Positions 6,365 to 29,387 are shown, numbered from the stretch's first letter. The stretch: DNA of 32,000 nucleotides from Candidatus Electronema aureum (GCA_004284765.1 NQJD01000001.1:199367-231366); one strand, 5' to 3'. Program-made: numbers and translations. Notes: generated by a model not told the origin, from the sequence alone.

Positions 6365-9300
6365 TCAAGGAGATATTTCACCACAGGGCGTAACTGTTCC
6401 ATCCCTGCCGATGATAACAGAATTCCCCGTTGCTGTTTCAGCAAGCACCAGCTTGTCGCCCGGCTCTGCAAAGCCTTGGAAGCTGCCGTCTCGGTCATAG
6501 ACTGCGGCGCAGGAGGTGTTGCTTGTTGCGGTGTTTTCTGCTGCGTCGATGGTGAATGCCACTGGATATTGATTGCAGGTGCCGATAAACATTAGATTGC
6601 TGTCCTGATTAAAGCTCATGGCCCGGCCAAGATCATCGGATACGCCGCCGCCTTGGCGCAGCCATTCTGGTGTGCCGTCGGCGTGGTATTTGATCATGAA
6701 CAAATCACTCTCCCCGAAGCTGGTCAGGCTTTTAAAGACGGTATCTGCGTCATAAAAATCACAGGACTGGCGGAAGTCTCCGGCAACATAAACCTGTCCT
6801 GCATCATCCGCCGCAACAGCTCGGCCTGTGCAGTTGCTGGTGCCGTTTGCCTTCTGCGCCCAGCGGACATCACCGCTGTCCGCCCTGAATTCGGCAACGA
6901 AGAAGTTTGTTGCATCGCCGGTCGTCAGGGTGATGGGAGATGTGCCGCTGAAGGTGATTGAGTCCTCGTAATAACCGGTTGCCAGCACAGAATCCGCGCC
7001 TTTTGCTGCGACAGACAAGACACTGCCTGACCCGCCGTCAACCTGTTTGGCCCAGACCAAAGTTCCGTCCAACGTGTATTGAGCAATAAATGGATCCGTA
7101 TTGCCATCTATAGAATTCAAGGTGGTGGCCGATGCGCCGCTGCCCAAATTCAGGGTGCCGGTAAACATGCCGCCGATATGCAAACGGCCCGCCGCGCTGT
7201 CCACAGCCAGACTTTCTCCGTAGTCATCCCACTGTCCACCTGCCCGTTCCGCCCATGCCAGCGCACCGGCAGGAGTGTATTTGGCTACAAAAATGTCATG
7301 AGCGCAACCGGGTTCTCCGCTTAAAGTTTTAGCGACAGCAGTTCCATTGAAGAAATTCATTTCAGAATAATACGAGCCGCTGAGATAGAGATTGCCTGTC
7401 GTGTCTACTGCGGCCTTGGACTCGATAATACCATACTCGCTTGAGATGGCCTTTCGTGCCCAGAGTAACTCACCAGAAGCGGTGTACTTTGCAATGTAGA
7501 GCGCATGTTTTTCGGTAGGTGCAGTCAGGGTGACAGGTGCATCCGTTCCCAGCGTGATGCTGCTTTGGAAGGTACCCACCGCAAAAATATTTCCTGCGTC
7601 ATCACGGGCTAACGCTTGGACACCTGGAGGCAGCGCCCATGAATCGCAGTTGACCTTCTCTTGCACCGTGACATACACGCTTGCAGAGGAGGTGCCACGG
7701 CTTGGACTTTTCACCGTGTACGTCAAGGAGTCTGAGCCGGTGAAGCCGAAGTCCGGCGTATAGGTCAGCGTGTTGTCTCCGTTGATTAAAGCCGTGCCGT
7801 GGGCTGGGTCGCTGACGGCAATGACCTCCAACGTTTCGCCTGCTGGCGGATTGTCATTTGTCAGCACCGCAATGAGCACTGCAACGTTTTCTTTTGTGAC
7901 CGCCGCATCATCCACGGCCAGAGGCGTTTCCGCATTTGCATCAGCAATGGTGAAATATCCGTCGCTCAGGTCAGTGGTTGCCGGATCTGCGGAATGCGTC
8001 ACTCTGATTTGATAATCTCCGCCTTCGGAAAGATCGGCTGGGACATGCCAAGAATAGCTGTTGTCGGATGCGCTGACTGTTTGAACGGCTTGCTCAATGC
8101 TTCGATAAAAGTTGCCCGCCTTGAGCAGGTCAATATTCACCGTGCCGTTGAAACTGCTTTTCCAGATGATGTTTCGATTTGTGCCAAAACCGAAGACATC
8201 GCCATTGACCGGAGAGAGCACAGTCAAAGTTTCTGGCCATGTGATGCTGAAGCGGTCGCTGTCATCAAAGATTGAACTGTCTGCATTGCTGGTGATCTTG
8301 ATCCAGTAATGATCTTCCGGCTGAAGTTCCGGTACAGTCCAAGTATAAGAACCAGTGTTCGCCGCCGCCGTCGCAATGGTTTGATTGAAGCTGACGCTCT
8401 TATACAGATCAATCTTGACTGTGCCGCCAATATTGCTGGTCCATTGAATGGTCTGCTGTCTGTCGGACAGCCAAGACGTTGCGGCATTGGGTGTGAGCAC
8501 GGTCATGCTTTGATCAGCAGCAACCTGAATGCTGACCGAAGCCTGGTTGTTGCTTTCGTTGGCTTCCAGCACATTGTCGGCATAATCGGCATAGAAGATG
8601 ATATACTGCTGACCAACGGGCAGGTTTTTGGGAAGGGTCAGAGTTTGTGAAAAAGACTGGCTCTGGCCGGGCAGCAGGGAACCGAAATAATCTGTACTCA
8701 GCAGGATGTCTGCGCTGTCCCAAGCGGCATCAGCGGAGAGATAATAACCGATACGTGAGGCAGCCAAAGTGCCGGTGCCGCCGATGTTGGTCAGAGTTGC
8801 ATTGACGGTGACGCTTTGACCGGGAGCGACATTTCCCGGAGAAACCCTCGGATTGCTGACAGCCAGATCAGCGCCCGTTCTCACCTCAATGCGGACAGCC
8901 GCCGCATTGTTGCCTTCATTGGCCTCAGCAACAGTGTTTTGGTCATCTGCCCGGAAGATCAAGTGATAATCCCCGGAAGCCAAGTGTGCCGGAATGGTGA
9001 TTTCCTGTTCAACAAAGGCGTTGCGTCCGTCAATGATGCTGCTGAACTGTTGCCTATACAGCAGAGTGTCTGCCGCATCCCACGTGCTGCCGTTAGTGGA
9101 AAGATAACAGGCTAATGCGGATGCGTCTGCCGGGCCGCTGCCGATATTGGAAACTCTGGCCCGTGTCAATGTTGTTGCGCCCGGCCCAAGCTGGAAGGGT
9201 TTGGCTTCAGCAGTGTCAACGATCAGGTCAGCGGCACCTTTGTTATGGTTGCCGGGGCCGGGGCAAGTGGCTTTCAGGAGCCAATCCACCAGCCATTTGC

Positions 9301-10087
9301 CATAGAGATCTTCGCGCTGTTCAATGCTGATGTTCTGATTTGTGCTGAAACCAGCGTTGAAGTAAATATCAATATTGCCGTATCCGGCATGATAAATTTC
9401 ACTTTTTCCGATCAATCGGGTCAGGGCGGCATCTTTATAGATATTCACTGCCGTGCCGTTGACAAGGAGTCTGACTGTGCCGCTTGATTTCCAGAGCAGA
9501 TTGCCGGTTGTTGGCTGGATGCTGACATGGCCGACTGGCACAGCGTCAGCAGTTGTTTCTATTGTCAGGCGATAGGTGGCGTGGTATTTATTCTGCCAAT
9601 CTTGGGGGCTGACTCTGTATGTGCAATTTTGGAGAACTGGGGGATTTCCTTTGCCGTTTGTTGCGCCGAGTACGGTGAGGGTGAATTTGTCGGTTCCCAC
9701 GTAGCCGAGGGTATCGCCGACTTGGGCGGTGATGGTGACATCGCCCGGTGTGTTTGGGGCAGTGTAGGTGACGGTGCTGTAGTCGGGGTAGCTTGGGTGC
9801 AGGGTGAAGGTGCCTTGAGCAGCGTACCAATAGAAAAACGGCTCGCCGTTGTGTTTAGTATCTACTGTGGCGTAAGCGGTCAGGTCAACGGTTTCGCCGG
9901 GTTTGATTTTGTTGAGGCTTTCAATGCGTACTGACGGGACCTTTACGCCGGGAACGGGCATTTGCTGTTCGTAATTATTGCCTATCCTATCAGCCAGACT
10001 CTCATTTCCAAGAAGTAGTGCAATCAATACGGTAATGAGAGATATTGAAATTAACAAAAATTGTGTAGGATTTTTTCTATAATTCAT
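6365..10087 (-). CDS. large secreted/cell-surface protein with Ig-like, CARDB x2, Kre9/KNH-like beta-sandwich x2, cadherin-like and C-terminal beta-propeller (SBBP-type) repeats (1240 aa)
   Basis: ATG at 10087 gives MNYRKNPTQFLLISISLITVLIALLLGNESLA, a signal anchor. There are two CARDB-like segments (ADLIVDTAEAKP...EANEGNNAAAVRIEV and ADLAVSNPRVSPG...EANESNNQASVSIQV). There are two roughly 90-aa units (TVLTPNAATSW...IDLYK... and TVLSPVNGDVF...IDLLK...). A cadherin-like segment reads PLAVDDAAVTKENVAVLIAVLTNDN...LTYTPDFGFTGSDSLTYTV. Repeated D..GN.Y..G.F motifs (ARDDAGNIFAVGTF, VDTTGNLYLSGSY, ADDAGQVYVAGDF) are typical of SBBP propeller repeats. Confidence 0.85.
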   Translation of the reverse strand: MNYRKNPTQFLLISISLITVLIALLLGNESLADRIGNNYEQQMPVPGVKVPSVRIESLNKIKPGETVDLTAYATVDTKHNGEPFFYWYAAQGTFTLHPSYPDYSTVTYTAPNTPGDVTITAQVGDTLGYVGTDKFTLTVLGATNGKGNPPVLQNCTYRVSPQDWQNKYHATYRLTIETTADAVPVGHVSIQPTTGNLLWKSSGTVRLLVNGTAVNIYKDAALTRLIGKSEIYHAGYGNIDIYFNAGFSTNQNISIEQREDLYGKWLVDWLLKATCPGPGNHNKGAADLIVDTAEAKPFQLGPGATTLTRARVSNIGSGPADASALACYLSTNGSTWDAADTLLYRQQFSSIIDGRNAFVEQEITIPAHLASGDYHLIFRADDQNTVAEANEGNNAAAVRIEVRTGADLAVSNPRVSPGNVAPGQSVTVNATLTNIGGTGTLAASRIGYYLSADAAWDSADILLSTDYFGSLLPGQSQSFSQTLTLPKNLPVGQQYIIFYADYADNVLEANESNNQASVSIQVAADQSMTVLTPNAATSWLSDRQQTIQWTSNIGGTVKIDLYKSVSFNQTIATAAANTGSYTWTVPELQPEDHYWIKITSNADSSIFDDSDRFSITWPETLTVLSPVNGDVFGFGTNRNIIWKSSFNGTVNIDLLKAGNFYRSIEQAVQTVSASDNSYSWHVPADLSEGGDYQIRVTHSADPATTDLSDGYFTIADANAETPLAVDDAAVTKENVAVLIAVLTNDNPPAGETLEVIAVSDPAHGTALINGDNTLTYTPDFGFTGSDSLTYTVKSPSRGTSSASVYVTVQEKVNCDSWALPPGVQALARDDAGNIFAVGTFQSSITLGTDAPVTLTAPTEKHALYIAKYTASGELLWARKAISSEYGIIESKAAVDTTGNLYLSGSYYSEMNFFNGTAVAKTLSGEPGCAHDIFVAKYTPAGALAWAERAGGQWDDYGESLAVDSAAGRLHIGGMFTGTLNLGSGASATTLNSIDGNTDPFIAQYTLDGTLVWAKQVDGGSGSVLSVAAKGADSVLATGYYEDSITFSGTSPITLTTGDATNFFVAEFRADSGDVRWAQKANGTSNCTGRAVAADDAGQVYVAGDFRQSCDFYDADTVFKSLTSFGESDLFMIKYHADGTPEWLRQGGGVSDDLGRAMSFNQDSNLMFIGTCNQYPVAFTIDAAENTATSNTSCAAVYDRDGSFQGFAEPGDKLVLAETATGNSVIIGRDGTVTPCGEISP

Positions 10088-10137
10088 ATCTGTATCCCTA
10101 ATAGAAAGAAATAATCTGATAAAATTCCGAATAGATC

Positions 10138-12843
10138 TCAATGGGTTATCGACCGATAGAGTGTATAGGCATCATAAACGGCTTTCACTGTTTCTTGTCG
10201 TGAAGCAGGAATTTCTTTATTCATCTCATCTACTATATCGGAGACATTAGAGATAGATATGAACTTTAAACCATTATAAAATGGTTTAATTGTAAGCTGG
10301 TTGGCTTTGTCTATGTACCGATAAAACCAGTAGTATTCGATTGATCTATGTGCGACTGTTCCTGGGCCTGTCATAGCAATTCCAAGAGCAGGACCTGTAG
10401 AAACTGGTTCTAATGGAAAAAAGGTTAATACAACCATCTTGAGCATTTCAGCTCTACTTACAATTTTTCCCGGAAGAAATGGACCTGGTGAGTATCCCTC
10501 TGTTCCATCAGGATAGCCACTGACCGCGCCGTAACCGAATAGTTTCCCAATGTATTTTTCATACCACTCTTCTGTACCAATTATATCACCGAACTGTTCG
10601 GATAATTGCTGGTGTGTTGTAGGCTTCAGTACCAGCTTTATTCCGGCTGCTTCTGCTGCCTCTACTATTATCTTGGAAGCTTCAGCTCTGTTGAGATGAT
10701 CATGAGGTTTGAACGTCCCATCTGGATGACCTTGAATAATGCCTTTTTCGTATAAACTGGCTATTGCGTTGATGTACGGATTACGCTGATTAACATCAGG
10801 GAATATCTCTTTGTTAAGGCTGGATAGTAAGAAATTAGATGGAGCGATTTGAGAAGCTATTGATAGAAATAGAGGTTCCAACCTGAGTTCGTTCCCCTCT
10901 AACTCCTGATCATCTGGCCAAAAACTTATTCCACCAGTTGTTAATGCTGAGTTTATATAAGACTTGCGATCAGAATTATTCTCGAAGCCAGTTTCATGAG
11001 GCGAGTTGTATTCAAGTAAACTGTCGCTGCCTTCCTCAGAGTAAGCTCCACTCTTCATGCGGTCATGATGATAGTCCATAAAAAGCACATGAGTTGCATA
11101 CCCATCGCCCTCGTATTCGTTGTCACTATATCGAAATATTTTTATGGTTGAGTTGCCATTATCAAGCCCTTCCTCTTTCCATGGGGCATACATAGTTACT
11201 TGGTTTGATTGTGACTGTTGTACCAATTCGTCAAATGAATATCTTAAATCTAACAATTGTCCACTAATTGGTACCGGCCCATCGTTTAGGTATCCGTAAT
11301 GTCCACGAAAGAGTGGGTTGAAATCAAAAAGCTCACCAAGGTGCTGAACACCATCTTCTGCCACTCCCATTATAATATTACTCCAACCATCTGTTACATG
11401 GTTGTTTTCATTCCCGCCATTTGCATTAATAGCTCCAAAGAGTATCAGCTTACGTTTGTAATCATTTGGCATATCCTGATATTTTAAACTGATAATGGTA
11501 AGCCAAGGGTTTGGTGTTAAAGGTAAAACAGCATCTATTGACCAATTTCTGTTTAATGGGCTTAGAGTTCCTATTAAATATTCATATTCAGCGTTTTCTC
11601 TTATTTTAAAAACTGGTAATGTTATATTTTTCCCCTTTTCTTTGAATCCCATTTTTAACTCACTTATTTCTTTTCTGAAAAACATATCAAAATTATATGT
11701 TTCATTTATACGAAAAGATGTTTCGTTAAAAAATGGAGATGGCATTCCTTTAACCTTTATATTTCCATAAAAAAAATCTACAGAATCATCATTACTATTA
11801 TATATATCCATCTGTTTAATACCCAATTCTCCTACAAGATCGACATTTGCTACTCCAAAATTATTTGTAATATCTTCAAATACATTCCTACTTATTGCAG
11901 AATTGAATATAGCATCATAATTATCCCATTGAATATCGTTGGCACCTAATGTGTATAAATCTCTTCCAGCTATTGGATTTGTATTACCTGAAACCCATCC
12001 TGGAACAGCAGCAGGACTTCCATGATGAACTCCGTCCAAGAGAATTATCTTTTCTGCATAATCAGGGGAAAGCTTGTGTTCTTCAAAGGCAGACCTGACG
12101 AGAATGGTACCCATGCTATGCGCAACAAATATCGCACCATTTTTCTTTTTAAAGTGTTCTCTCAGCTCAGGGATTGCATTCTCAGAACGTAACATATTTT
12201 TCAATATTGCAGCATTGAACGTAACGTGCTTATAGCTTGGGTATTTATATACATATATTTTGAAGCGGCTTTTAAGGTTATGGTACTGTGTGAAAAATTC
12301 AATGAAGTTTTTCCAATATTCTTCAGGGCTCAACTCAACATCAGTTTGTGCGTACGGGTTAGCGGTGTCGTTGGCCCCTTGCCACCCATGTACCAATATT
12401 ATCGGAGTACGATCTCCCAATTTCTTGCCCGTCTCTGTCGGAAGAAGCTCCCCTTTTATTTTATCTGCTAACGTAGGGTGTTGATCTTTTAAGGAAAAAT
12501 AATAGTAATCTTCAGGTGAATACAGATAGTGAGTCTTGGTGTTGGATATATATTTGTATTCTCCAGTTTTTTCAATTCTTTCATATTCTTCTGGTGGCCA
12601 GTTGTTAAAAATTCTGTAGTCATCTACCTCGTTATATGTATCCTCCATAATCCATTTTGTCCCATAAATATTTGTACCATCGGGATCAATACTCCTAGTT
12701 GCTTCAAGGGTCATGTATGAGTAATAGCAGTTATTGTCTATGGTGGAGCGTTTGACACCGTCGCCAGCGTATAGAGCTTGGGGCATTAAACTGATGATGA
12801 AAGAAACAACGAAGAATCGAGCGACTGATTTGACTGAAAACAT
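10138..12843 (-). CDS. secreted alpha/beta-hydrolase (lipase/esterase-like) with C-terminal SLH domains (901 aa)
   Basis: ATG at 12843 gives MFSVKSVARFFVVSFIISLMPQALYA, a signal peptide. An oxyanion-type PIILVHGW and a nucleophile elbow FVAHSMGT (G/A-x-S-x-G) are present. The C-terminus has FPDVNQRNPYINAIASLYEKGIIQGHPDGTFKPHDHLNRAEASKII and a second ...GAVSGYPDG...VSRAEMLKMVV, which are S-layer-homology-like. The gene is very AT-rich; a hand-counted 60-nt sample at 11701 is 17/60 GC. Confidence 0.8.
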   Translation of the reverse strand: MFSVKSVARFFVVSFIISLMPQALYAGDGVKRSTIDNNCYYSYMTLEATRSIDPDGTNIYGTKWIMEDTYNEVDDYRIFNNWPPEEYERIEKTGEYKYISNTKTHYLYSPEDYYYFSLKDQHPTLADKIKGELLPTETGKKLGDRTPIILVHGWQGANDTANPYAQTDVELSPEEYWKNFIEFFTQYHNLKSRFKIYVYKYPSYKHVTFNAAILKNMLRSENAIPELREHFKKKNGAIFVAHSMGTILVRSAFEEHKLSPDYAEKIILLDGVHHGSPAAVPGWVSGNTNPIAGRDLYTLGANDIQWDNYDAIFNSAISRNVFEDITNNFGVANVDLVGELGIKQMDIYNSNDDSVDFFYGNIKVKGMPSPFFNETSFRINETYNFDMFFRKEISELKMGFKEKGKNITLPVFKIRENAEYEYLIGTLSPLNRNWSIDAVLPLTPNPWLTIISLKYQDMPNDYKRKLILFGAINANGGNENNHVTDGWSNIIMGVAEDGVQHLGELFDFNPLFRGHYGYLNDGPVPISGQLLDLRYSFDELVQQSQSNQVTMYAPWKEEGLDNGNSTIKIFRYSDNEYEGDGYATHVLFMDYHHDRMKSGAYSEEGSDSLLEYNSPHETGFENNSDRKSYINSALTTGGISFWPDDQELEGNELRLEPLFLSIASQIAPSNFLLSSLNKEIFPDVNQRNPYINAIASLYEKGIIQGHPDGTFKPHDHLNRAEASKIIVEAAEAAGIKLVLKPTTHQQLSEQFGDIIGTEEWYEKYIGKLFGYGAVSGYPDGTEGYSPGPFLPGKIVSRAEMLKMVVLTFFPLEPVSTGPALGIAMTGPGTVAHRSIEYYWFYRYIDKANQLTIKPFYNGLKFISISNVSDIVDEMNKEIPASRQETVKAVYDAYTLYRSITH

Positions 12844-12875
12844 GATATAACCTTTCGATATAGTAACGTCTTGAT

Positions 12876-13064
12876 TTAAAAACGAGATATTACGCACATC
12901 CTCGCCTGATGCTCCTGCGCAACAAAGCTCTTCGCAAAGGAATCCGGCTTCCCCTTCCCTCTGAGAAAATCCTGCTCAAACAGCGTCAGATCAACTGCCG
13001 CCCATGCACTGCTGAGAGACAAACAACCCAAAAGAAGAGATGCTGCCATTACGATGCGTTTCAT
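12876..13064 (-). CDS. small signal-peptide ORF (62 aa), possibly the 5' stub of a disrupted secreted-protein gene
   Basis: A strong GGAGGA RBS lies just upstream of the ATG at 13064. MKRIVMAASLLLGCLSLSSAWA is a Sec signal peptide. The last ~7 codons (MCVISRF*) cross into the AT-rich block that starts near 12895. Confidence 0.45.
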   Translation of the reverse strand: MKRIVMAASLLLGCLSLSSAWAAVDLTLFEQDFLRGKGKPDSFAKSFVAQEHQARMCVISRF

Positions 13065-24171: not shown

Positions 24172-24414
24172 GTGCGCACCTTTTATCTCCGCATCCGGCC
24201 TGACCGGATCAGCTTATTTCGTTTTCTGCTGGAGGGCTACGACGGCCTGGCCGTGCTTTCCACGCTGGATGCGCGGCAGGGACTTGTTAGGCTGATTGTG
24301 CCAAAATCCAGATATGCGGAGCTGTGGGCACTGCTGGCGGCGATCTGCGAGGAGCTGGTACACGAAGGAAAGGGATTGGCAAAAAATGAAAATTTATTGC
24401 AGGAGTTACCATGA
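24172..24414 (+). CDS. DUF4911-like small protein (80 aa)
   Basis: GTG start 7 nt after the purB stop. FYLRIRPDRISLFRFLLEGYDGLAVLSTLD resembles the DUF4911 family, which I recall as frequently following purB in deltaproteobacterial-type genomes. Confidence 0.6.
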   Translation: MRTFYLRIRPDRISLFRFLLEGYDGLAVLSTLDARQGLVRLIVPKSRYAELWALLAAICEELVHEGKGLAKNENLLQELP

Positions 24415-24740
24415 AAAAACTGATCGAATTTGAACTGGACGGTCAGCCGGTTTATTTTGAAACTGAAATCAGCGAGGCGGAAGGAATGCGCCGAGTGAGC
24501 CGGGGCGGTGGAGAGGACGAGCCGGAAAAGGCCGTTTCCCGCTTCACCGAGGCAGTGGCCCGGATCAAGCCTGCCGCCGAGGTGGTGCTGAACGCCTTCC
24601 GGGAGATGAACACGCCGGACGAGATTGCGCTGGAGTTTGGCCTAAATTTTTCCGCCAAGGCAGGCGTGGTCTTTGCCTCCACTGACAGCACCGCCACCTT
24701 CAAGGTCTCTTTGCGCTGGAAAAACGAGAAGCCGAAATGA
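24411..24740 (+). CDS. Trypco2-like (trypsin co-occurring domain) small protein (109 aa)
   Basis: MKKLIEFELDGQPVYFETE...AVSRFTEAVARIKPAAEVVLNAFREMNTPDEIALEFGLNFSAKAGVVFASTDSTATFKVSLRW. The layout matches my recollection of the trypsin-co-occurring domain 2 / CU044_2847-type family: an N-terminal beta segment, a central helix, and EFG...ak.a.v.a....ea.fkv.L.W at the C-terminus. It lies directly upstream of a trypsin-domain gene. There is an ATGA overlap with the DUF4911 stop. Confidence 0.7.
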   Translation: MKKLIEFELDGQPVYFETEISEAEGMRRVSRGGGEDEPEKAVSRFTEAVARIKPAAEVVLNAFREMNTPDEIALEFGLNFSAKAGVVFASTDSTATFKVSLRWKNEKPK

Positions 24741-24782: not shown

Positions 24783-25430
24783 ATGTCTTCCCCGTCCTTG
24801 GAGTTTGCCCTTGTCCGCATCCTGATTAACGATCAAAGCCCGCGCAAGCCAGTTGGCGCGGGCTTTCTTGTCACACCGCGCCATCTGCTGACCTGCGCCC
24901 ATGTCATCAATGACGCACTTGGGAGGAAGCAGAATGCGGCTGAACAGCCTGATCTCCCCGTTTTTCTCGACTTCCCCTTGCTGCCCGGTCAGCCGCTGCT
25001 TCAGGCGAAGATTCTGCATTGGTTTCCTCTCCGGGATGATTCCACCGTCGGCGAGCTGGAGGACATCGCGGTGCTGGAGCTTCCCGCTGATGCAGTCCTG
25101 CCCGCCGGAGTTCAGCCTGCGCCCTTTGAGGTGCTGGACAACAAAGCCTCGTTTCTTGACGATGCGGTCAGAATGTGCGGCTTTCCCGCAGGCGTTGATG
25201 ACGGCACCTACGCCAACGGCAGGCTGCAAGGCCGGAACGCCAAGGGCTGGGTGGAAATTCACCATCAGGACAGCAACATTGTTGAGCAGGGCTTCAGCGG
25301 CACGGCAGTATGGGCGGTGAAGGAGAACGCGGTTTGCGGCATGACCGTGAGCATGTTGAGCAAACGGGATGCCACAATTGCTTATATGATTCCCGCCCTC
25401 ACTTTGCTCAAGGCGTTGCCCGCCATTGAT
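24783..25430 (+). other. trypsin-like (chymotrypsin-fold) protease domain of the giant protein (approximate boundaries)
   Basis: His40 / Asp94 / Ser172 lie in canonical sequence contexts and spacing for S1-type Trypsin_2-like peptidases. Confidence 0.75.
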
Positions 25431-28400
25431 GCGTTCAACCGCTCCTTCAATCCCTACAGGGGCTTGGAAGCGTTCCGGGAAAAGGATGCTCGATTTTATT
25501 TCGGCAGGCAGGAGGCGGTTGAGCTGATCCGGCAGGCTGCGCTCAGGCAGTCGTTTACCGCTGTCATCGGCGCGAGCGGCAGCGGCAAGTCTTCTGCCGT
25601 GTTCGCCGGGCTGGTGCCGCTGTTGAAAGCAAGCAAAACCGACAGATGGCTGTGCGCCGCCTGCCGTCCGAAGAGTCAGCCCTTTGATGAGCTGGCCGCC
25701 TGTCTGATTCCTTTTCTGTATGATGACGCGCTGGAGCAGATCAAAAAGGCCAAGGACTGCGCCGCCGATCTTGCGGCAGGGAAACTGAGCCTGCCTGATC
25801 TGCTCCGGCCTGTGCTCGGCAGAAACAGCGGGGCAAAGCTCCTGCTGATTGTTGACCAATTTGAGGAGCTGTTCACCTTGAACCCGGACAAAGCCCTTGT
25901 CCGGCGGTACATCGAGGAGTTGCTTGCAGCCCGGCAGGCGGAAGGCTGCGCCGCGCTGATCACCATGCGGGCGGATTTCCTCGGCACCGCGATTGCCTAT
26001 GACCTTTTTGCCGAAGCCCTGAATAACTGTCCGCCGATCATGCTGCCGCCGATGGGCGGGCAGGGCTTGCGGGAGGCGGTGGAGCAGCCTGCCGCCCTGC
26101 TGCATGTCTCTTTTGAGCCGGGTCTGGCTGATCTGATTGCTGAGGATGTGGGCAGCGAGCCGGGCAGTCTGCCGCTGCTGGAGTTCTGCCTCACCCAGCT
26201 TTGGGAGAAGCAGGAGCGCAGGCAGATCAGCCACGCCGCCTACAAGGCCAGCGGCGGGGTGCAGGGTGCGCTGGCCGGTCATGCGGACAAGGTGCTCAAG
26301 GAGTTTGACGAGCAGCAGGTCAGGCAGATTTTCCTCAAGTTGGTGCGGCCTGGACAGGGCACGGAAGACACCCGGCAGGTGGCGGCTCTTGAGCAGTTTT
26401 CGCCGGAGCAGTGCGGTCTGATACAAAAACTTGCTGATAAAGACCGGCGGCTTCTAGTGACATCGGGTGATGCGGACGGCAAGGAAAAGAATGTCGAGGT
26501 GGTGCATGAGGCTCTGATCCGCTGCTGGCGGACGCTGCGGCAGTGGGTGGACAAAGAGCGGGAGTTCCTCGTCTGGCGGGAGAAGCTGAAGATGCTGCTG
26601 AAGCAGTGGCAGGAGAGCGGCCATGATGAGGGTGCGTTGCTGCGGGGTCTGCCGCTGGCTGAGGCGGCGCAGTGGCGGGAAAGCCATGCGGGATATTTGG
26701 CAGGCGCGAAGGACGAGCTGGAGTTTATTGCTGCCAGTGAGCAGCTTCGGGAGAGCGAGTGGCTGGCACGGGAGGCGGCAAAGGAGGAAAAGGAAAGGCA
26801 GCGGAAAAGGAGCATGATTGCCTTGGCGGCTGGTTTGATGATAGCAATTGCTCTGTCAGTGTTTGCGGTTGCACAGTGGCAGAAGACGGCGCAGCAGACC
26901 ATTGCAGCGAACTACAACCTTGCCAAGGCATTTGAGAAAGAAGGATTGCGCTCCTTAGAAAGAGCTGATAAGGAAGGCACTGATGCATATAAAAAGGCAT
27001 TGCTATTTGGCTATGCTGCTTTTGAGCAGAAGATTGATCCAAGGAAATCTGCCTTGGATCAATCTTCTGTAGATCTTCTTTTTGCGCCTGAAATATTCAA
27101 TGCTGCACTGGCGGAGCTGACTATTTTTGGAGGGCATGAGAATTTTATCAACAGTGCTGTCTTCAGCCCTGACGACACACGGATCGCTTCTGCTTCTTAC
27201 GACAAGACGGCTCGGATATGGGACATCGAGACAGGCAGAGAGCTGAAAGTCCTCAAAGGGCATAATGAGACTATAAACAGCGTGGCTTTCAGTCCTGACG
27301 GCAGGCGGATTGCTTCCGCTTCTCACGACAAGACAGTGCGGATATGGGATGTTGCAACCGGAAAAGAATTGACCGTCCTCAAAGGGCATGAGGAGGCTGT
27401 AAACAGCGTTGCCTTCAGTCCTGACGGCAGGCAGATTGCTTCTGCATCTGAAGACAAGACTGTGCGGATATGGGACGCTATAACCGGAAAAGAACTGACT
27501 GTTTTTAAGGGGCATGAAAAATTGCTCTTCAGCGTAGCTTTCAGTCCTGACGGCAAGCGGATTGCCTCCGCATCTGAAGACAAAACAGTGCGGATATGGG
27601 ATGCTATAACCGGCAAAGAATTGGCCGTCCTCAAAGGACATGAGGAGGCTGTAAACAGCGTTGCCTTTAGTCCTGACGGCAGGCAGATTGCTTCTGCCTC
27701 TTGGGATAAGACAGTACGGATATGGGATGCTATAACCGGCAAAGAATCGGCCGTCCTCAAAGGGCATGAGGATTTAGTCATCAGCGCGGCTTTTAATCCT
27801 GACGGCAGGCGAATCGCTTCCGCTTCTCACGATAAGACAGTGCGGATATGGGATGCAGAAACTGGCAAAGAGATAGCTGTGTTCCATCATGATGAGGCTG
27901 TTCGCAGCGCGGCCTTCAGTCGTGATGGCAAACGGATTGCTTCCGCTTCTTACGACAAAACGGTACGTATATGGGATGCCGAGACTGGCAGCGATAGATA
28001 CCTCCTTAAAGGACATGAATATGCTGTCTACAGTGCTTCCTTTAGTTCTAACGGCAGATGGATCGTTTCGGCATCTTACGACAAGACAGTGCGGATATGG
28101 AATGCAGAAACCGGCAGAAATTTAGCCGTGTTGAGAGGACATGAATCTGTTGTCCGTAGCGCAACCTTCAGTCCTGATGGCAAATGGATTGCTTCCGCTT
28201 CCGAGGATAAGACAGTACGGATATGGGGGCTGCCAACTGGTAAAGTGCTTGCCGTCCTTAAAGGGCATGAGGATCATGTTACAAGCGTGGCCTTCAGCCC
28301 TGATAGCAAACGGATCGCTTCGGCTTCTGACGACAAGACTGTGCGGATATGGAACGCTGCAACTGGCAAAGTGCTGACCGTCCTTAAAGGGCATGAAAAA

Positions 28401-29099
28401 ACTATCTATAGCGCAACCTTCAGTCCTGACGGCAGACGGATCGCTTCAGCTTCCGAGGATAAGACTGTGCGGATATGGGACGCTGCAACTGGCAAAGTTA
28501 TGGCCGTCTTTAAAGGGCATGAAGGTCGAGTCAACAGCGCAGCCTTCAGTCCTGACGGCAGACGGATCGCTTCAGCTTCCGAGGATAAGACTGTGCGGAT
28601 ATGGGATGCTGCAACTGGCAAAGTGATGGCTGTCTTCAAAGGGCATGAAAGTTATGTCAATAGCGCGGCCTTCAGTCCTGACGGTAAACGGATTGCTTCG
28701 GCTTCTTACGATAAAACGGTGCGGATATGGGATATCAAGAGCGGCAAACTGTTAGCCGTCCTCAATGGGCACGAAAAGCCTGTTAGCAGCACATCTTTCA
28801 ATCCTGACGGTACAAGGGTCGCTTCTGCTTCTAGGGACAATACGGTGCGAATATGGGATTTGAAGCTCTGTACGCTTTTTCTGCAAAATTTTGATAAGCC
28901 CACGCCTTTCTACTTTACCTTCATGGAAGCGGTGAAATTCCTCTGGCAGGTTAAACTGGACGGCCTTGAGTTTGTGTCAACAGACCGCCGCACCGCAGCG
29001 GACATGGAAAAATTCGGCAGCCTGCTTGCGCCCCCGCCGCCCGGTCAAAGCAAATTCGACCAAGTGCTTGAGTGGGCGGAGAAGCAGCAGCCAAAGTGA
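24783..29099 (+). CDS. trypsin-like serine protease / STAND (nSTAND/NACHT-type) P-loop NTPase / TM helix / 14x WD40 repeat protein (1438 aa)
   Basis: AGGAGG RBS at 24772-24777. Protease triad contexts are H40 (LLTCAHV), D94 (EDIAVLEL) and S172 (QGFSGTAVW). NTPase motifs are NPYRGLEAFREKDARFYFGRQ, Walker A GASGSGKSS (25569-25595) and Walker B LLLIVDQFEELF, followed by the helical HEALIRCWRTLRQWVDKEREFLVWREKL module. The hydrophobic helix is MIALAAGLMIAIALSVFAVAQW. Fourteen 42-aa GH...WD units follow, then a 79-aa tail. Confidence 0.9.
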   Translation: MSSPSLEFALVRILINDQSPRKPVGAGFLVTPRHLLTCAHVINDALGRKQNAAEQPDLPVFLDFPLLPGQPLLQAKILHWFPLRDDSTVGELEDIAVLELPADAVLPAGVQPAPFEVLDNKASFLDDAVRMCGFPAGVDDGTYANGRLQGRNAKGWVEIHHQDSNIVEQGFSGTAVWAVKENAVCGMTVSMLSKRDATIAYMIPALTLLKALPAIDAFNRSFNPYRGLEAFREKDARFYFGRQEAVELIRQAALRQSFTAVIGASGSGKSSAVFAGLVPLLKASKTDRWLCAACRPKSQPFDELAACLIPFLYDDALEQIKKAKDCAADLAAGKLSLPDLLRPVLGRNSGAKLLLIVDQFEELFTLNPDKALVRRYIEELLAARQAEGCAALITMRADFLGTAIAYDLFAEALNNCPPIMLPPMGGQGLREAVEQPAALLHVSFEPGLADLIAEDVGSEPGSLPLLEFCLTQLWEKQERRQISHAAYKASGGVQGALAGHADKVLKEFDEQQVRQIFLKLVRPGQGTEDTRQVAALEQFSPEQCGLIQKLADKDRRLLVTSGDADGKEKNVEVVHEALIRCWRTLRQWVDKEREFLVWREKLKMLLKQWQESGHDEGALLRGLPLAEAAQWRESHAGYLAGAKDELEFIAASEQLRESEWLAREAAKEEKERQRKRSMIALAAGLMIAIALSVFAVAQWQKTAQQTIAANYNLAKAFEKEGLRSLERADKEGTDAYKKALLFGYAAFEQKIDPRKSALDQSSVDLLFAPEIFNAALAELTIFGGHENFINSAVFSPDDTRIASASYDKTARIWDIETGRELKVLKGHNETINSVAFSPDGRRIASASHDKTVRIWDVATGKELTVLKGHEEAVNSVAFSPDGRQIASASEDKTVRIWDAITGKELTVFKGHEKLLFSVAFSPDGKRIASASEDKTVRIWDAITGKELAVLKGHEEAVNSVAFSPDGRQIASASWDKTVRIWDAITGKESAVLKGHEDLVISAAFNPDGRRIASASHDKTVRIWDAETGKEIAVFHHDEAVRSAAFSRDGKRIASASYDKTVRIWDAETGSDRYLLKGHEYAVYSASFSSNGRWIVSASYDKTVRIWNAETGRNLAVLRGHESVVRSATFSPDGKWIASASEDKTVRIWGLPTGKVLAVLKGHEDHVTSVAFSPDSKRIASASDDKTVRIWNAATGKVLTVLKGHEKTIYSATFSPDGRRIASASEDKTVRIWDAATGKVMAVFKGHEGRVNSAAFSPDGRRIASASEDKTVRIWDAATGKVMAVFKGHESYVNSAAFSPDGKRIASASYDKTVRIWDIKSGKLLAVLNGHEKPVSSTSFNPDGTRVASASRDNTVRIWDLKLCTLFLQNFDKPTPFYFTFMEAVKFLWQVKLDGLEFVSTDRRTAADMEKFGSLLAPPPPGQSKFDQVLEWAEKQQPK
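25449..26560 (+). other. STAND NTPase module (approximate boundaries)
   Basis: It starts at the NPYRGL motif (N223). Walker A and Walker B are as above, followed by a winged-helix/helical extension ending around HEALIRCW. Confidence 0.75.
26814..26879 (+). other. predicted transmembrane helix between the NTPase and WD40 modules
   Basis: This is a 22-residue uncharged hydrophobic stretch, M678-W699. It is preceded by the strongly basic KEEKERQRKRS and followed by QKTAQQ. Confidence 0.6.
27132..28862 (+). repeat. array of 14 tandem 126-nt WD40-coding units (two predicted 7-bladed propellers)
   Basis: The period is 126 nt. The core ...FSPDG+RIASAS.DKTVRIWD..TGK....LKGHE... repeats 14 times. 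Units 11 and 12 (28411-28523 versus 28537-28649) differ at 5 of 113 nt by hand alignment. Confidence 0.95.
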
Positions 29100-29123: not shown

Positions 29124-29387
29124 ATGACGACATCAACTGTCACAACAAGAGGCCAAGTGACTATCCCAAAGCATATTAGAAAACTGCTGAAGATTGACAG
29201 AGGCGATAAAGTCGAATTCATGGTTGATAAAAATGGGGCCGTCATGCTTCAGTCAGTCACATCTGATGTCGCTCTGCTGAAAGGAATGGTGCCTAAACCT
29301 GAAAAATACGTCTCCATTGAAGATATGAACAATGCTGTGCTGGTGACACAATCACCTTTGCCCAGCAGGCAAAGCGAAAGGCTTTGA
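29124..29387 (+). CDS. AbrB/MazE/SpoVT-family (VapB-like) antitoxin-type DNA-binding protein (87 aa), no cognate toxin adjacent
   Basis: MTTSTVTTRGQVTIPKHIRKLLKIDRGDKVEFMVDKNGAVMLQ is the looped-hinge-helix SpoVT/AbrB motif. ...LKGMVPKPEKYVSIEDMNNAV is typical of VapB-type antitoxins. An AAGGAAA RBS is present. miaB starts 9 nt after the stop, leaving no room for a toxin gene. Confidence 0.8.
   Translation: MTTSTVTTRGQVTIPKHIRKLLKIDRGDKVEFMVDKNGAVMLQSVTSDVALLKGMVPKPEKYVSIEDMNNAVLVTQSPLPSRQSERL

Follow-up and report, generated by a model that had tools for sequence, protein, structure and literature searches.

The WD40 array encoded within a 32,000-nucleotide (nt) window of the genome of the cable bacterium Candidatus Electronema aureum (GCA_004284765.1, NQJD01000001.1:199367-231366) raises the question of whether a bacterial protein carries here a rapidly evolving ligand-recognition surface, as was proposed in a first-pass annotation of this DNA by likeness to the HET-E/D/R proteins of Podospora. 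All positions given below are coordinates of this window. The gene in question (24783–29099, + strand; 4,317 nt) codes for a protein of 1438 amino acids (aa) annotated as "WD40 repeat" (CAK8719856.1 = TAA76324.1), in which a trypsin-like protease is followed by an nSTAND1 NTPase, a predicted transmembrane (TM) helix, an array of 14 WD40 units, and a C-terminal tail. By analogy with described systems, we consider it likely that the array serves ligand recognition in a two-gene conflict system, probably an anti-phage one acting by abortive infection. The proposal of a rapidly evolving surface was sustained in part: the placement of variable residues on the predicted binding face and concerted evolution at the level of the whole array support it, but identity between units is not generally high, positive selection in this array is unproven and most units are old.

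When anchored on the RIW motif, the array (27105–28865) consists of 14 in-frame WD40 units, all of them 42 aa long except unit 7 (u7), which has 41 aa. Tandem Repeats Finder returned a period of 126 nt and 13.7 copies, and Pfam PF00400 matched 14 WD40 stretches (E=1.7e-192), by which the unit number given in the first-pass annotation was borne out. Its lists of variable residues (the patch after GH, the next-but-one residue and the residue between SAS and D) also corresponded exactly to alignment columns 12–16 and 32. Column entropy was highest at positions 14 (2.95 bits), 13 (2.61), 16 (2.41), 32 (2.26), and 42 (2.18). Residues H11, S17, F20, S29, A30, S31, D33, T35, R37, I38, and W39 were invariant in all 14 units, and so the WD40 tetrad H11–S29–D33–W39 is unchanged throughout. 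The further claim that variation is confined to a few codons did not hold: the positions that had been singled out (12–16, 32, 41, 42, and 1) account for about 16.4 of 36.4 bits (45%) of the summed column entropy, strand D (positions 3–9) holds approximately 26% of it, and 87 of the 126 nt columns are polymorphic. Nor did units share high nucleotide identity in general, the mean being 72% (range 58–90%), with high values only for u3–u5 (90%) and u11–u12 (88%). The median unit identity of 0.68 lies above the >0.6 criterion of Pereira & Lupas (2022) and just below the 0.7 cutoff of Hu (2017). Units 11 and 12 (28362–28613, + strand) are the youngest pair, with a proportion of synonymous differences (pS) of 0.15 and an exact repeat of 64 nt. 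They had been said to differ at only 5 of 113 nt outside the GH patch, which is essentially right: of their 15 differences, nine lie in codons 13–16 (12 nt) and six in the remaining 114 nt. Within the stretch from unit 3 to unit 5 (27357–27734, + strand), u3 and u5 have a pS of 0.31 and an identical GH patch, and codon 32 is changed at all three bases (GAA to TGG).

An array of this kind could be an assembly artefact, made of collapsed or chimeric repeats, and a short-read Logan contig (L003) does stop inside it, at 27620. As far as it extends, this contig nevertheless matches the window without a difference, and the longest exact repeat within the array is 64 nt. The same 1438-aa protein was found in two assemblies, one of them the single 2.94-Mb contig OW818638.1; because both encode it, the length of the array is taken as real, and an artefact has next to no probability. 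Nanopore reads served to close the genome of Ca. E. aureum GS, which shows 100% average nucleotide identity to the earlier short-read metagenome-assembled genome, and OW818638.1 is presumably this closed genome.

The location of the variable residues was analyzed on an AlphaFold model of aa 770–1438, which had a mean predicted local distance difference test score (pLDDT) of 91.3 and contained 56 strands in a regular D-A-B-C pattern. Model confidence was lost only at the junction of units 7 and 8, and therefore the 14 units are predicted to fold into two 7-bladed WD40 propellers, the first formed by units 1–7 (27105–27983, + strand) and the second by units 8–14 (27984–28865, + strand). The closest solved structure by sequence was the 14-blade WD-40 repeat protein of Nostoc (PDB 2YMU, E=1.6e-254), and Apaf-1 chains were also among the PDB matches (E≈1e-81). 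Within each unit, the model places strand D, the outer strand, at positions 4–9, the D–A loop at 10–14 (top face), strand A at 15–20, the A–B loop at 21–25 (bottom face), strand B at 26–31, the B–C turn at 32–34 (top face), strand C at 35–40, and the C–D loop at 41–3 (bottom face). The D–A and B–C loops form the top face by established WD40 topology, and the label used here rests on that. The residues known from the WDR5 literature to form the peptide-binding WIN site of WDR5 were then located on the unit profile, residue names agreeing with the WDR5 sequence used for 16 of 16. Thirteen of these 16 residues fell at positions 14, 16, or 32 (A47, S49, A65, S91, D107, Y131, F133, F149, S175, Y191, S218, Y260, and I305), two were off by one position (blade-6 insertion), and one lay inside the insertion and was unmapped. 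Based on this mapping and on the predicted loop placement (14, 16, and 32 lie within or beside the D–A and B–C loops), the variable positions 13, 14, 16, and 32 line the top face in the model, where WD40 proteins bind their partners. The expectation that the variable codons lie on this face was thus supported for these four positions but not for 41 and 42, the residues after IW[DNG]: they had been grouped with the sensing positions, and the model puts them in the bottom C–D loop.

The age of the units was assessed by pairwise Nei–Gojobori estimates. Mean pairwise pS between units was 0.54, i.e., a synonymous divergence (dS) near 1, and the core codons showed a ratio of nonsynonymous to synonymous divergence (dN/dS) of 0.11 at a dS of 0.94. 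Since unit–unit dS is near 1 and u11–u12 and u3–u5 are the only young pairs, the constant core is kept mainly by purifying selection on old copies and not by recent homogenisation. A signal of shared ancestry does remain among the units: pairs with the same residue shared the codon at a frequency of 0.60, vs. 0.41–0.42 expected from host codon usage, and Ile38 is encoded by ATA in all 14 units, although reference genes use this codon for only 3–7% of their Ile residues. Positions 13, 14, 16, and 32 showed a dN of 1.14 and a dN/dS of 1.4, and the ratio was 0.72 for the five hotspot positions of the family. The top-face ratio was thus 0.7–1.4, as neutral drift could also produce. Because synonymous sites are saturated, neutrality and positive selection are inseparable here. 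In the u11–u12 pair, top-face codons showed a proportion of nonsynonymous differences (pN) of 0.58 vs. a pS of 0.15 (Fisher p=0.007, nominal; one of seven pairs tested), which is suggestive of positive selection on these codons.

These data bear on the alternative that the array undergoes concerted evolution of the HET-E type at present, in which frequent shuffling or gene conversion would keep units near-identical while top-face codons are positively selected. The 64-nt exact block of u11/u12 with its nine of 15 differences in codons 13–16, and the u3/u5 pair, in which codon 32 is changed at three bases on a mostly synonymous background, speak for such a process. The mean identity, the synonymous divergence, the 87 polymorphic columns and the top-face ratio of the array as a whole all speak against it, and the repeats of high-conservation fungal and bacterial NLR proteins have been described as 80–90% identical units (Dyrka 2020). 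In addition, a GENECONV-like permutation test for conversion tracts among the units gave none that was significant after correction for 91 pairs, the best value, for u11–u12, being p=0.0024 before correction. Ongoing homogenisation or shuffling of this array is thus supported neither by its synonymous divergence nor by this test. Two further points in favour of a HET-E-like process, the array-specific consensus and the behaviour of younger arrays, came from the comparison with relatives described below; taking both sides together, we regard this explanation as unlikely.

One relative was a contig designated L010, whose locus is syntenic (purB–DUF4911–Trypco1–gene). This contig stops inside its array (L010 3418–3909) after approximately 3.6 units, probably at a short-read assembly break. 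Units 1, 2, and 4 of L010 are 78–91% identical at the nt level, and a block of 78 nt is free of differences between its units 1 and 2, which do differ in codons 13–16; the L010 array is much younger than that of the window. For each unit of the window, the best match was another window unit (0.72–0.90 nt identity, vs. 0.66–0.78 to L010), the L010 units were likewise closest to their own array, and there was no positional orthology between the two. Each array has its private residues (I27, K34, and I38 in the window vs. L27, N34, and L38 in L010). The claim of concerted evolution is consequently upheld at the level of the array, units clustering by array, but not as recent homogenisation of most units. 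The pattern is, as far as sequence comparison goes, concerted evolution in an operational sense, or else an independent re-amplification as reported for WRAP propellers. Background dS between the window and L010 was 0.6–1.2 (purB, DUF4911, and Trypco1), and since unit–unit dS is similar to this value, the amplification in the window would be about as old as the split between the two lineages.

Other homologues extended this comparison. The distant relatives L001 and L007 have degenerate arrays (median unit identity 0.44), and among homologues that have the N-terminal part as well as the C-terminal tail, the number of units ranges from 2 to approximately 14. Among ten homologous arrays, entropy peaks recurred at positions 13, 14, 16, 32, and 34. 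In the younger arrays, top-face dN was 2–6 times background dS (0.69/0.21 in P0020, 1.08/0.17 in P0042, and 0.83/0.41 in L010), and top-face dN/dS was 3.6–8. These ratios point to diversifying selection on top-face codons acting in this family while arrays are young. Positive selection at such codons, as postulated for the array of the window, is thus clear in its relatives, but in the window itself synonymous sites are saturated and only u11/u12 is suggestive. Closer comparisons gave negative results: no match above 58% identity to the sensor module (aa 701–1438) was found in the protein database that could serve as a positional orthologue; no second strain or allelic variant was found, the protein being the sole member of its 90% cluster and the Logan contigs having the same sequence; and the linker/TM region had no match in metagenomes. 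The protease–STAND core, searched against metagenomes, had among the matches listed, which were drawn in by a generic motif, only relatives of at most 41% identity, and a scan of a genome collection returned one relative, L001. Among the top matches to aa 701–1438 there were fungal NACHT-WD40 proteins (Serendipita, Bisporella, Athelia, Mycena, Lentinula, and others; 44–53% identity), and bacterial kinase-, caspase-, and nSTAND1-linked arrays ranked beside them.

Comparison with L010 also revealed that the gene has segments of different age. A protease–STAND core tract (approximately 24960–26630, + strand; L010 1270–2940) is shared by both with 92–100% nt identity, mostly at least 95%, and a dS of 0.07–0.12. 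In contrast, the initial 60 codons, the segment comprising linker, TM helix, and array, and the genes on either side showed a dS of 0.6–1.2 between the window and L010. The first 60 codons in the window were nearly identical to those of L007 (dS 0.07). The core tract is thus probably a recent recombination tract, and the gene a mosaic formed by recombination among family members. A swap of the sensor module between near-identical orthologues was also contemplated and dropped, because the flanking genes are as diverged as the array and the core is the unusually similar piece.

The remaining parts of the protein and its neighbour suggest what the array may serve. The trypsin-like serine protease domain (24834–25412, + strand; aa ~18–210) was matched by PADLOC at aa 18–209, and Trypsin_2 figures in the record of the protein. 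As read from the translation, its triad is intact, with the motifs TCAHV (His), EDIAVLEL (Asp), and GFSGTAV (Ser). The nSTAND1 NTPase (25452–26630, + strand; aa 224–616; Pfam PF20703, E=6e-107) has, again as read from the translation, intact Walker A (GASGSGKSS) and Walker B (LLLIVDQFEE) motifs. Directly upstream, a gene coding for a 109-aa Trypco1 (Pepco) protein (24411–24740, + strand; Pfam PF19493, E=1e-25) ends 42 nt before the main gene, and Trypco1 also adjoins the homologue in L001, L007, L010, and L013. In the conflict systems of multicellular prokaryotes, Trypco1/2 proteins have been described as accompanying trypsin-like peptidases. A Streptomyces Pepco is cut by the adjacent Avs4 protease to yield a toxic beta-barrel pore, and "transmembrane STAND ATPases" are listed among the sensors fused to Pepco-associated proteases (bioRxiv 10.1101/2025.11.14.688446). 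By analogy, Trypco1 of this locus is probably the substrate of the protease and a pore-forming effector. The tail of approximately 77 aa after the last unit (28866–29099, + strand; …KPTP.Y.TF.EAVKFLWQ…LLAPPPPGQSKFDQVLEWAEKQQ) is predicted to form a small alpha/beta domain (model pLDDT 64–81) and is common to L001, L007, P0002, P0008, P0011, and P0014, a subfamily with 2 to approximately 14 units.

Between NTPase and array, a TM helix resembling a signal anchor was predicted at 26814–26870 (+ strand; aa 678–696, MIALAAGLMIAIALSVFAV; mean Kyte–Doolittle score 2.61), flanked by seven K/R in the 15 aa before it and one after it. A comparable hydrophobic segment was present in 95 of 109 homologues, at a median position of 672. 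Because of the basic upstream flank, the whole WD40 array would be periplasmic according to the positive-inside rule. In cable bacteria, this compartment contains the conductive fibres, which extend along the entire filament.

Every functional step of the mechanism that we propose is inferred by homology, from parts that were observed in the locus and whose conservation among relatives was likewise observed. One unit would have been amplified in this lineage to give an array with a private consensus (I27, K34, and I38 as ATA); this amplification would be mostly old (dS near 1), with few later duplications (u11/u12, u3/u5, and the group of u10–12). A ligand would bind at the top faces of the propellers, upon which the nSTAND1 domain may oligomerise in an NTP-dependent manner, and oligomerisation would switch on the N-terminal protease. 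The protease would then clip the adjacent Trypco1/Pepco protein to give a membrane pore, whose permeabilising action would kill the infected cell. Across the family, sensor diversity may arise through re-amplification of units, diversifying selection in young arrays and recombination into mosaics. In a bolder form, to which we give little credence as a whole, the array would be a periplasmic transmembrane receptor, re-amplified by lineage, that fires the cytoplasmic protease and the Pepco pore to sacrifice single cells of the filament, segments of the locus recombining between Electronema lineages.

Several observations weigh against a conflict-system sensor. The gene is surrounded by the housekeeping genes recJ, purB, and miaB and there is no obvious defence island; a periplasmic sensor, if the TM helix is real, would complicate a simple analogy with Apaf-1 or Avs proteins; the array of L010 used for comparison is partial, with approximately 3.6 units only; and adaptive diversification in the array of the window is unproven, its top-face ratio of 0.7–1.4 being indistinguishable from 1. 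As far as is known, all WD40 proteins, slowly evolving ones included, vary from blade to blade on the top face. The array could also be an ordinary structural WD40 scaffold with exposed loops that are simply unconstrained and with neither a sensor role nor rapid evolution. In favour of this, top-face dN and dS are of similar size in the window, approximately 55% of the entropy lies off the top face (outer strand D and bottom C–D loop included), and the neighbours are housekeeping genes. A scaffold accounts poorly, however, for the protease–STAND NTPase fusion and the pairing with Trypco1, an architecture described for conflict systems. Nor does it fit the differently amplified array of the syntenic relative L010, the top-face dN/dS of 3.6–8 in younger arrays of the same family, or the 2 to approximately 14 units that homologues hold between conserved flanks. 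We therefore judge a mere scaffold to be quite improbable and retain the array as a likely ligand-recognition module.

Comparison with known systems places this array among proteins already described. Highly repetitive prokaryotic WD40 proteins carry diverse hotspot sites on a conserved background (Hu 2017), bacterial NLR-like proteins with internally conserved repeats have been published (Dyrka 2020; Pereira & Lupas 2022), and such propellers have been amplified repeatedly and independently in STAND proteins (Pereira & Lupas 2022). The pattern is thus already known for bacterial proteins of this kind. The array shares with highly repetitive WD40 proteins (HR-WD40) a conserved core with diverse hotspots, here at positions 13, 14, 16, and 32 (Hu 2017). 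Similar in layout is the WRAP protein Npun_R6612 of Nostoc punctiforme (2YMU), which also has 14 blades C-terminal to a STAND NTPase, arranged in two 7-bladed propellers, and WRAP arrays have, like that of the window, been amplified independently in close homologues. Blades of WRAP proteins show almost no synonymous differences, in contrast to the pS of 0.54 found here. The window differs from WRAP also in its nSTAND1 type of NTPase, fused trypsin-like protease, TM helix and Trypco1 partner, and its host is a cable bacterium and not a cyanobacterium.

The likeness to HET-E that had motivated the proposal proved partial. HET-E/D/R (HNWD) proteins of Podospora anserina share with the window a STAND NTPase and an array of 42-aa WD40 units that group by array. 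Codons 7, 9, 25, and 27 of HET-E, which flank the conserved residues 8 and 26, are reported to be under positive selection, and by spacing (18 between the conserved V15 and D33) they correspond to positions 14, 16, 32, and 34 of the window. Three of the four (14, 16, and 32) coincide with variable positions, but at position 34 Lys is almost fixed, and variation is found at position 13 in its place. Synonymous sites are far more diverged in the window than in HET-E/D/R, with no significant sign of ongoing exchange, and the NTPase belongs to a different STAND clade, being nSTAND1 and not NACHT; the effector differs as well. Repeat-induced point mutation (RIP) is not known to exist in bacteria.

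As for mechanism, the SsPepco–SsAvs4 pair of Streptomyces resembles the locus in that a small Trypco1/Pepco gene lies directly upstream of a fusion of trypsin-like protease and STAND ATPase. The sensor of SsAvs4 recognises a phage portal protein; that of the window would be a WD40 array behind a predicted TM helix. The Apaf-1 apoptosome offers the same layout, with two trigger-binding WD40 propellers behind a STAND NTPase, but its propellers are old, differentiated and conserved among orthologues, its effector is recruited instead of fused, and it has no TM helix. The nSTAND1–CLec proteins of multicellular bacteria share with the window the NTPase family, the multicellular host and a diversified C-terminal sensor, some of them having peptidase or TIR effectors; their CLec sensors are diversified by diversity-generating retroelements (DGRs) (Doré et al. 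2023). There the retroelement acts on a lectin fold, whereas the window shows repeat amplification and substitution in WD40 blades. Mutagenesis of the array itself by a DGR was weighed on this account, since nSTAND1 proteins with FGE/CLec sensors are DGR targets and such architectures occur among the homologues; moreover, the commonest codon at position 16 is AAC, with several NNC variants. Codons 13, 14, and 32 lack an adenine-specific pattern, though, and variation is spread over 14 separate units and not over one variable repeat. No reverse transcriptase was found among the window open reading frames (ORFs) examined or annotated, a template repeat not having been scanned for. The DGR explanation was rejected as close to excluded, and amplification followed by substitution is retained for the array.

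Other features of the window were recorded in the course of this analysis. The G+C content at third codon positions (GC3) falls at approximately codon 700, from ~0.6–0.87 to 0.33–0.60, in the window gene, L001, L007, and L010. The array has a GC3 of 0.49 vs. 0.76 for the adjoining housekeeping genes, and rare codons, among them ATA, AGT, and CCT, recur unchanged from unit to unit. A recent horizontal acquisition of the array, considered on account of its low GC3, was set aside because the same step occurs in all four orthologues. Two antisense ORFs run through the array on the − strand (27003–27781; 254 and 152 aa) with repetitive translations; these seem to be a side effect of the repeat and not genes. 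According to precomputed annotation for the source contig, the WD40 gene is immediately followed by a MazE/PrlF-type antitoxin gene (29124–29387), and a PIN7-domain gene lies downstream of miaB. At the other end of the window there is a tandem repeat (432–919; period 138 nt, 3.5 copies, 94% matches) around which two ORFs with only weak Pfam matches overlap (365–1084, − strand, and 380–1024, + strand), followed by a phage-integrase-family gene (1315–2520). Two very large surface-type proteins with CARDB/Big_9/cadherin-like and SLH domains are encoded at 6365–12897, partly in a low-GC stretch (GC 0.35–0.41 at 10–13 kb).

Taken together, the array belongs to the known WD40–STAND class, within which it is moderately repetitive and for the most part aged, and it occurs in a new host group; the literature searched contained no paper pairing cable bacteria with WD40 proteins. 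With it, cable bacteria, a multicellular electrogenic lineage, join the carriers of NLR-like STAND proteins with internally repetitive WD40 sensors. The locus also offers a worked case in which purifying selection on the core, concerted evolution or re-amplification at the level of the array, and positive selection on the binding face can be told apart: purifying selection dominates in this array, and the family as a whole shows re-amplification and positive selection. The array is a probable sensing end of a protease–ATPase "suicide switch". If the predicted TM topology is true, threats would be sensed outside the cytoplasm, which would provide a lead on how infection is policed in filamentous bacteria.

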